The translations under genes were made by a program, and so were the position numbers. From the UHGV virus genome UHGV-0106421: a DNA stretch of 42,057 nucleotides; one strand, written 5' to 3'. The stretch is from a virus. Of this stretch, positions 50 through 42,057 are shown piece after piece; the stretch's first letter is position 1, and each line of letters begins with the position of its first letter. Under the pieces are notes generated by a model, which made no database searches, was not told the origin of the DNA, and was given only the letters and a program-made list of their open reading frames with translations.

Positions 50-1222
50 TCAGGCCTTATGGTGGAAATAATCACTCAGGCGGGAAAACATGCCGCCTTC
101 CCCGACAGATTCCAGGGTAACCAGCGGCCAGTGCGCCACCTGTTTATCACGGTCGTAAAGTTCAATTTCCCCTACCCGCTGATGGGCGCTAATTGGCGCG
201 GTGAGCTCTTTACCATCAAGGGTATATTTGGCTTTGATATGTGGAATTTCGGCTTTCGGTAGCACCATCCAGAACTCTTGTTCCGTTCCCAGGTCGATAT
301 TTTCTTTATCGCCATACCAGATGCGTTCCGTTCCGACCTTTTTCCCACGGTGCAAAATTTGCACCGTAGTAAAGTTTTGTTGCCCCCAACGCAGTAATTT
401 TCTTGCCTCTTCCTCACGACCTTTTGCACTGTCAGCCCCCATTACCACTGCAATGAGACGACGCTGCCCATCTACAGCCGAAGCAATGAGATTAAACCCG
501 GCACCAGAAGTATGACCCGTTTTCAGGCCGTCAACATTCATGGTTTTATCCCACAACAACCCGTTACGGTTTTGCTGGGTGATACCGTTCCAGGTGAGAC
601 TTTTCTCACTGTACATATGATAAAACTCGGGCTCGCCGTGGATGATAGCGCGAGAAAGCACAGCTAAATCATAAGCCGAGCTATGCTGGCCAGGTGCATC
701 CAGACCATGCACTGTTTCAAAATGCGTATCCTTGAGATGCAGCTTCTCGGCATAGTTGTTCATCATTTCAACAAACTGCCGTTGCCCACCGGCAATATAG
801 TCAGCCAGAGCAACACAAGCGTCATTTCCGGAATCCACAATTAAACCACGGCTTAAATCACGTACCGATACGCGATCGCCCTCTTTCAAAAACATCAGTG
901 AAGAACCGACAAACACCGGATTATCTTTCGCCCACGCATCGCGCCCCACGGTGACAATATCGTCTGGCGTAATGCGATGACTATCGATAGCGCGATCCAC
1001 GACATAACCCGTCATCAGCTTTGTCAGGCTGGCGGGATTGCGCTGTTGATGCTCATTACCCGCGGTGAGGATCTGACCGGTGGTGTAATCCATCAATACC
1101 CAGGACCCGGCATGAATCTCTGGAGGCTGAGGTGAAAAAGGAATGTTTTCCGCCGCAAAACCAGACGATAAGTTAAAAACGAACAAAGAAGCAGCAATAA
1201 TAAGACGGCGTTTCAACAGCAA
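50..1222 (-). CDS. dacD: D-alanyl-D-alanine carboxypeptidase DacD (PBP6b), host gene
   Basis: 390-aa ORF with N-terminal signal peptide and class-A PBP motifs SxxK (SLTK), SxN (SGND) and KTG (KTGHT); sequence matches E. coli DacD as recalled. Confidence 0.9.
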   Translation of the reverse strand: MLLKRRLIIAASLFVFNLSSGFAAENIPFSPQPPEIHAGSWVLMDYTTGQILTAGNEHQQRNPASLTKLMTGYVVDRAIDSHRITPDDIVTVGRDAWAKDNPVFVGSSLMFLKEGDRVSVRDLSRGLIVDSGNDACVALADYIAGGQRQFVEMMNNYAEKLHLKDTHFETVHGLDAPGQHSSAYDLAVLSRAIIHGEPEFYHMYSEKSLTWNGITQQNRNGLLWDKTMNVDGLKTGHTSGAGFNLIASAVDGQRRLIAVVMGADSAKGREEEARKLLRWGQQNFTTVQILHRGKKVGTERIWYGDKENIDLGTEQEFWMVLPKAEIPHIKAKYTLDGKELTAPISAHQRVGEIELYDRDKQVAHWPLVTLESVGEGGMFSRLSDYFHHKA

Positions 1223-1424: not shown

Positions 1425-1487
1425 ATGATGAATGACGGTAAGCAACAATCTACCTTTTTGTTTCACGATTACGCGAAACACCCCTGA
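1425..1487 (+). pseudogene. sbcB: Truncated 5' fragment of exonuclease I gene sbcB, interrupted by prophage insertion
   Basis: ATG ATG AAT GAC GGT AAG ... encodes MMNDGKQQSTFLFHDY, the recalled N-terminus of E. coli SbcB, then diverges and hits a stop after 20 codons; divergent to dacD as in E. coli. Confidence 0.6.
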
Positions 1488-1527: not shown

Positions 1528-1550
1528 TTTGGTACGCAATTTGGTACACA
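1528..1550. repeat. Two direct copies of TTTGGTAC(G/A)C near the left prophage junction; candidate integrase arm-type sites
   Basis: tttggtacgc at 1528..1537 and tttggtacaca at 1540..1550; the same motifs recur next to int at 42015..42057. Confidence 0.4.
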
Positions 1551-40656: not shown

Positions 40657-40848
40657 ATGACCGATACCAGCCTGATTCCTGAGAAAGAAGTGATGAACAA
40701 GCTCGGTGTTTCATCACGTCAGACAATCTGGAACTATACCAAACGGCACGGATTTCCGAAGCCAGTCAGAACCCACCCCAAATCATACCTTCGTGAAGCT
40801 GTTGAGGGGTGGATTCTTAACGGTGGCGTTAATCAGAAATGCTCCTGA
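40657..40848 (+). CDS. AlpA-family excisionase / transcriptional regulator
   Basis: 63-aa ORF with AlpA-like motif (LGVSSRQTIWNYTKRHGFPKPV); adjacent to int. Confidence 0.6.
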   Translation: MTDTSLIPEKEVMNKLGVSSRQTIWNYTKRHGFPKPVRTHPKSYLREAVEGWILNGGVNQKCS

Positions 40849-42014: not shown

Positions 42015-42057
42015 ATTTGGTACGCTCAAAAATAATGGTTTGGTACACATCTGGTAC
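42015..42057. repeat. Direct TTTGGTAC(G/A)C repeats upstream of int; candidate arm-type integrase sites
   Basis: atttggtacgc (42015..42025), gtttggtacaca (42038..42049), ctggtac (42051..42057); same motifs as at 1528..1550. Confidence 0.4.

Follow-up and report, generated by a model that had tools for sequence, protein, structure and literature searches.

The window (the whole stretch of 42,057 bp that was analysed) carries a prophage inserted in sbcB, and its main features are collected in Table 1. At the left end, next to dacD, the native start of sbcB (1425-1473) is now joined to phage DNA, which begins at 1474, and the resulting frame stops at 1485-1487. Comparison of both prophage junctions with the attB of MG1655 yields a single block of identity, TTTCACGATTACG. 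For Sf101 and phage 2851 the same 13-bp core is in the literature as CGTAATCGTGAAA (PMC4159516), and the records of mEp234 and HK544 annotate it as attP 'type 2851'. The presence of the core CGTAATCGTGAAA after sbcB codon 16 and next to a 2851-type int identifies the attP studied here as one of the phage 2851 type.

The window ends 50 bp upstream of int, and the right prophage/host junction was consequently taken from 99%-identical relatives. The order in E. coli genomes with a 99%-identical int region is int, three repeats, approximately 130 bp of phage DNA and a replacement sbcB start, MTGTDKQPTFLFHDY, which is phage-borne and after which the rest of sbcB continues. The phage supplies a promoter region together with this new sbcB 5′ end, MTGTDKQPTFLFHDY instead of MMNDGKQQSTFLFHDY (L001 4459-4635), and sbcB is after integration still annotated as an intact gene of 474 codons. 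Since both the promoter region and the start of the gene are phage-borne, sbcB expression in the lysogen is presumably under phage-supplied signals.

A pattern search for TTTGGTACRC in the whole window returned four exact matches, all on the plus strand, which start at 1528, 1540, 42016 and 42039 and occur nowhere else, and tolerating one mismatch revealed no extra site in the window. The mean expectation is 0.18 matches, and none of 100 dinucleotide-preserving shuffles gave four. The hexamer TGGTAC is not rare by itself (13 observed versus 10.2 expected in the window), and the signal therefore resides in the full 10-mer and in its clustering. Searching for the hexamer also exposed an additional copy at 42052-42057, the last bases of the window. 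Because this outermost copy reads TCTGGTACAC in full in the 99%-identical relatives L001 and L002, the copy at the window end is a complete third site, and the inventory comprises a pair at the left prophage end and a triplet adjoining int.

The sequence-only reading had described two copies on the left and two to three on the right, in the same order and orientation at both prophage ends. The counts are borne out, with the third right-hand copy complete in the relatives, and the exact matches confirm that a GC variant precedes an AC variant at either end on the same strand. The same reading had named a genome-wide abundance of the motif as an observation that would speak against it, and this is not what was found, since the four matches are confined to the ends. 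That a 10-mer should have come up four times by chance has nothing in its favour beyond the shortness of the motif, and the low expectation, the failure of all shuffles to reach four and the recurrence of the layout in 72 of the 79 loci compared below make its probability practically negligible.

Table 1. Features of the prophage ends in the window, with strand and remarks
Feature	Position	Strand	Remarks
dacD	50-1222	-	
Displaced native sbcB 5′ end, 16 codons and one base (MMNDGKQQSTFLFHDY)	1425-1473	+	identical to MG1655 sbcB
Crossover core, 13-bp identity block TTTCACGATTACG, left prophage/host junction	1461-1473	+	common to attP and attB
Putative int-distal arm site 1, TTTGGTACGC (GCGTACCAAA on the int-sense strand)	1528-1537	+	exact motif match, GC variant
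Putative int-distal arm site 2, TTTGGTACAC	1540-1549	+	AC variant; 2 bp after site 1 (12 bp start to start)
Small AlpA/HTH_17-like gene	40657-40848	+	overlaps int 3′ end; weak Pfam matches below curated cutoffs
Tyrosine integrase gene (int), 392 aa	40829-42007	-	N-terminal arm-DNA-binding domain and catalytic domain
Putative int-proximal arm site nearest int, TTTGGTACGC	42016-42025	+	GC variant; 8 bp upstream of int start codon
Putative int-proximal middle arm site, TTTGGTACAC	42039-42048	+	AC variant; 23 bp GTAC-to-GTAC from the site nearest int
Putative int-proximal outermost arm site, TCTGGTAC(AC)	42050-42057	+	cut by window end; 11 bp from middle site

To assemble the attP of the free phage, 177 bp of L001 were used to bridge the gap between the right window end and the phage DNA that begins at 1474. 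The assembly aligns over its full 435 nt to contiguous DNA in the free phages EC.P3, E212, mEp234 and Sf101, and HK544, HK140 and APC_JM3.2 match it over 91-92% of its length; identity to the free phage genomes is 95.4-97.9%. As this attP is found contiguous in free phages, the reconstruction is correct. Counted outwards from the ATG of int, its layout is 8 bp, site, 13 bp, site, 1 bp, site, approximately 162 bp, core, 54 bp, site, 2 bp, site, so that the sites start at −206, −183, −172, +67 and +79 relative to the start of the core and the attP with all five sites spans approximately 295 bp. The five copies are the top direct-repeat families in the attP of mEp234. Several copies of a motif distinct from the core thus lie on both sides of the crossover within one attP, and the rejoining of the right and left ends and comparison with attB, which had been proposed from the sequence alone, places the repeats in positions flanking the core and within about 300 bp.

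It had also been suggested, on account of a resemblance to the sbcB sequence near the crossover, that the repeats could be explained by the att core, that is, as homology derived from sbcB in the form of a remnant or duplicate of the target. The resemblance as such is a fact: sbcB of E. coli MG1655 (L003 2804-2813) has TTTGGCACGC, which matches the motif at 9 of 10 bases and is separated by 5 bp from the core on its left. A further likeness is found at 1506-1516 of the window, where GTTTCATGATT matches the core region GTTTCACGATT at 10 of 11 bases. The functional meaning read into the resemblance, however, did not stand. The core TTTCACGATTACG is located 54 bp from the nearest repeat, attP/attB identity is limited to this block, and TTTGGCACGC falls outside it. 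Moreover, every GTAC-type site has an intact GTAC, and the one mismatch in the sbcB look-alike destroys it. At the look-alike position the sbcB of O111 (L002 4638-4647) reads TTTGGAACGC, and the sbcB genes of other hosts read TTCGGTAAAAGC, TTCGGCAAAAGC and similar, including those of Buttiauxella and P. dispersa, which are hosts of GGTAC-type phages. Conversely, TTTGGTACAC is present in the sbcB of Rosenbergiella nectarea, whose prophage has sites of the TGTAC type. Phages of other hosts have arm motifs unlike the sbcB sequence of those hosts, and the clade of phages that targets argW retains the motif without any sbcB. The possibility that the int-distal arm is a diverged copy of attB was considered as well and rejected, as the best local match, GTTTCAtGATT, is not significant (shuffle p ~0.055) and is missing in the relatives L118 and SEN34. 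We treat the look-alike TTTGGCACGC as a coincidence specific to E. coli, which the comparison of hosts would suggest, and the att-core explanation is rejected; an origin of the repeats in the target appears scarcely credible.

The integrase itself has a composition that is informative in this context. It displays the Pfam domain PF13356 (Arm-DNA-bind_3) at residues 4-85 (E 8e-18) and PF00589 (Phage_integrase) at residues 204-366, and hence possesses an N-terminal arm-DNA-binding domain separate from its core-binding and catalytic domains. Residues 1-77 match the N-domains of CP4-like integrases (PDB 3jtz and 3ju0), residues 42-364 match the arm- and core-bound complexes of lambda Int (PDB 5j0n and 1z1b), and the protein as a whole is 99.2% identical to the Int of phage 1717. 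Judged by these matches, the combination of an arm-binding N-domain with a lambda-Int-like catalytic region marks the protein as a heterobivalent integrase and as a member of the P4/CP4 branch, and such an integrase needs arm sites. The relatives of the small HTH gene at its 3′ end are annotated as AlpA family or excisionase-like, and its product is a probable excisionase, or recombination directionality factor.

The conservation of the repeats was assessed in 79 usable loci with Int homologues of 42-99% identity, one per species, by inspection of the 100 bp upstream of each start codon. Three direct repeats in a common layout precede int in 72 of these loci. In 57, three GTAC-centred sites are spaced by 10-12 and 20-25 bp and the series stops 12-18 bp short of the start codon, and 15 loci, all from Vibrionaceae and with Int identities of 45-49%, have TGYGTCCAAA three times in an unchanged layout. 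GTAC sites at other spacing were found in three loci, and no triplet in four. The distance of 11 bp from the middle to the outermost site is kept in 56 of 60 GTAC-type loci, that of 22-25 bp between the middle site and the one nearest int in 57 of the 79 loci, and the background rate of GTAC elsewhere in the 79 loci is 2.6 per kb, from which approximately 0.3 would be expected per 110 bp. An alignment of 20 lineages made with MAFFT shows that, outside the sbcB-like coding part, the three GTAC sites are invariant together with a few flanking A/G positions and a short GTCCATG block; the DNA between these invariant sites is without conservation. Down to about 45% Int identity the sites accordingly keep their number, spacing and orientation, and the motif variant (GGTAC, TGTAC or GTCC) changes with the integrase clade.

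The four loci without a triplet are L064, L066, L079 and L084. In L079, from Erwinia tracheiphila, one site is mutated to GCAC and the N-terminal reading frame is disrupted, which gives this locus the appearance of a prophage in decay. A fourth motif variant is possibly represented by the TGTGTATATA-like repeats of L084.

Sites of the GTAC type differ in the base that comes next. The lineage of the window has C there, as do Buttiauxella, Pantoea dispersa, Tatumella and Paraglaciecola, and most other lineages have A. In the N-domain, GTACC and GTACA lineages tend to differ at the residue that follows 'GVI' (Q/R/L/N as opposed to T/S/A), with L086 and L016 as exceptions, and this is only suggestive of a residue that may read the difference. 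The GTCC type coincides with a change from RYRW to RCRF in the N-domain, which makes the residues concerned candidates for base reading.

A tblastn search with E. coli SbcB located sbcB on the strand opposite to int in 48 loci, and in most of these its 5′ end is approximately 180 bp upstream of int. The distance from the start of int to the core is 215-217 bp in the sbcB loci from IMG/VR, which cover 68-100% identity, and is similar in loci from genomes. A clade at 53-56% Int identity adjoins tRNA-Arg(CCT) instead of sbcB and has retained the triplet, and the motif thus follows the integrase lineage and not the target, be it sbcB or tRNA-Arg. The family targets one point in sbcB, the HDYE codons in the conserved HDYETFG region of the SbcB N-terminus, and the hosts in which this target is used span Enterobacterales, Orbaceae, Vibrionaceae, Shewanella, Aeromonas and Alteromonadales.

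The int-distal arm is visible only where an intact attP, or both prophage ends, are contained in one record, and this applies to four lineages. Given in sbcB sense, with the number of intervening bases between the two sites, the pair is TTTGGTACGC-2-TTTGGTACAC at 54 nt from the core in the window, TTATGTACAC-2-TTTTGTACAT at 54 nt in the IMG/VR phage L118 (Int 73%), AAATGTACTT-2-TTATGTACTC at 55 nt in the Salmonella phage SEN34, which has the same sbcB core (Int 60%), and ATCAGTACCC-2-TTATGTACAC at 58 nt in the attR of the argW phage VT2phi_272 (Int 57%). The spacer sequences between core and pair are unrelated among the four. Pair and triplet share one motif variant within each lineage: position 5 of the motif is G in all five sites of the window and T in 14 of the 15 sites of the other three lineages, and position 9 is T in all five sites of SEN34. 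Since both arms carry one variant per lineage, one protein per lineage evidently reads both. Taken together, the comparison shows a target in sbcB (codons 12-16) and a site geometry that are old and conserved, and an arm motif that has drifted; sbcB is the widespread target of the family, with one switch to argW.

Which protein this is cannot be told from co-variation alone, as Int and the adjacent excisionase are inherited together. One may therefore consider that the repeats are bound by a protein other than the integrase, either the AlpA-like excisionase or a host factor. The small HTH gene always adjoins int and so co-varies with the motif too, and directionality factors are known to bind phased direct repeats. 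The sites of lambda Xis, P2 Cox and KplE1 TorI are, however, normally on one arm and near the core, while the motif described here is on both arms, 54 and approximately 162 bp from the core, in a lambda-like 2+3 pattern. Binding by another protein would also leave the arm-binding domain of Int without candidate sites. We regard this alternative as very unlikely, although it is the strongest of those considered.

The reading that we prefer, with a probability of roughly 85%, is that the five repeats are arm-type binding sites of the phage-2851-type integrase of this prophage. The sequence-only reading had seen in them integrase sites on both arms of attP, and the follow-up supports this by their occurrence on both sides of the core, by the arm-binding domain and by a motif that follows the integrase. 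The analysis establishes the sites, their geometry and conservation, their co-variation with Int and the domains of Int; that Int is the binder, and that an intasome is assembled, is inferred from homology and geometry. In the free phage, a single attP of about 295 bp carries the triplet by the int start codon, then the core and then the distal pair. Integration into codons 12-16 of sbcB splits this attP at the core, leaving the pair at the dacD-side junction (1528-1549) and the triplet at the int/sbcB-side junction (from 42016 onward), an arrangement that is found in the window. By analogy with lambda Int, the N-domain of each protomer would hold an arm site and the C-terminal domains would hold and cut the core TTTCACGATTACG, and the 2+3 arrangement and the distances may let the arms fold back on the core into an intasome, as in lambda. 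Occupancy of the arm sites, together with the AlpA-like excisionase, could then set the direction of the reaction. A search for the IHF consensus WATCAANNNNTTR between core and arms gave only one match, with 1 mismatch, and this overlaps an arm site.

The position of the triplet raises the question of its influence on int expression. The three copies occupy the 60 bp immediately upstream of int, and 182 bp separate int from the phage-borne sbcB start. In the lysogen int, which faces away from the junction, is cut off from upstream phage transcription, and its promoter must lie in those 182 bp. A sigma-70 scan of the int-proximal arm upstream of int gave no match of at least 9/12, and a scan of the left prophage end gave none at the threshold of the tool. 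The left-end minus-strand genes, judged by the orientation of their ORFs, point through attP to int, and read-through transcription via attP towards int is thus possible in the free phage. With the triplet filling the 60 bp before int, bound Int should repress int. For IntS of KplE1 and several other prophage integrases, the arm sites overlap the int promoter and negative autoregulation has been shown (PMC2951348), and such autoregulation has been predicted to be general (Panis et al., PMC2951348). From its position and from this analogy, we would give even odds to the prediction that Int bound at the triplet also represses its own gene.

The location of three copies in the 60 bp upstream of the start codon could in addition be taken to mean that the repeats are purely transcriptional elements of int, operators or parts of its promoter, and have no role in recombination. 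Such elements would not account for the conserved pair on the far side, which stays 54-55 nt away from the core even though the spacers of the sbcB lineages are unrelated, and no consensus promoter was found upstream of int. This explanation is even less probable than binding by another protein. A wider reading, to which we would give slightly less than even odds, is that the triplet combines a recombination element with the operator of a negatively autoregulated int, in a family with at least three arm-site specificities (GGTAC, TGTAC and GTCC) and one attP geometry.

Two other sequence elements in the int-proximal arm deserve mention. The block GTCCATGYRATATTG (int sense), located immediately outside the right end of the window, adjoins the outermost arm site and is conserved across sbcB-type lineages (L001 4459-4480; alignment A2 columns 147-171). 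It contains a TGn-NATATT element resembling an extended −10, and could be the int promoter or a binding site of another protein. Furthermore, several lineages have TGTY(C/A) elements every 10-11 bp or so between core and triplet (L001 4480-4620; alignment A2 columns 20-65 and 125-160), as exemplified by the series GTTCACATCT GTTCATTCTG GTTCATTGCG GTTCGCTTTA GTCCATG in Erwinia. These elements are candidate binding sites for the AlpA-like excisionase, in a region that is partly sbcB-like coding sequence.

Among the phages with this type of att, 2851, 1717 and several Stx1a, Stx2a and Stx2c phages have genes for Shiga toxin, and Sf101 carries Shigella serotype-conversion genes. An attP of approximately 295 bp with five arm sites would define the smallest substrate needed in assays of integration and excision and in tools based on the integrase, and knowledge of its full extent may help to predict which degraded prophages still excise. 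The arm-site layout also suggests how int expression stays low in lysogens. If the interpretation is true, the GGTAC, TGTAC and GTCC series would supply arm domains and DNA sites that already form orthogonal pairs, and would provide a handle on the base-reading residues of the N-domain.

The best-known relative in kind is lambda Int, likewise a heterobivalent tyrosine integrase with 10-bp non-core sites on both arms, two of them (P1, P2) on one arm and three (P′1, P′2, P′3) on the int-adjacent arm, in an attP of a few hundred bp in total; its complexes 5j0n and 1z1b are matched by the present integrase over the catalytic region and part of the N-domain. In contrast to lambda, the N-domain here is of the P4/CP4 type (Arm-DNA-bind_3), the five sites have one orientation and an unrelated motif, and att is upstream of the int 5′ end. 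The att site of lambda is beyond the 3′ end of int.

KplE1 (CPS-53), with IntS and TorI, is closer in this respect, having its att upstream of int, an int transcribed away from the junction, arm sites just before the start codon, a P4-like Int and a small HTH directionality factor (PMC2951348). It differs in that the two integrases are only about 22% identical, and in that the repeats upstream of intS are TTTTACCC-like and not GTAC.

Phages 2851, 1717, Sf101, mEp234 and HK544 represent the same type of element, with an Int of 99% identity, the same 13-bp core and an attP of 95-98% identity. Database records and the Sf101 paper (PMC4159516) describe only the 13-bp core of the 2851-type attP and not the five repeats, and these are also absent from the literature found, a body of work that does not extend to the original phage 2851 paper (PMC2583581). 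A literature search for the four 10-mers returned unrelated primers only, and one on arm-type sites of Stx-phage or P4-like integrases returned nothing specific for this integrase family, binding and mutational data included. Prophages of the 2851 type in sbcB are thus already known, as is their 13-bp core, and the kind of feature is textbook; what is added here are the putative arm sites, their conserved 2+3 geometry, an old sbcB target with a switch to argW, and three variants of the motif.
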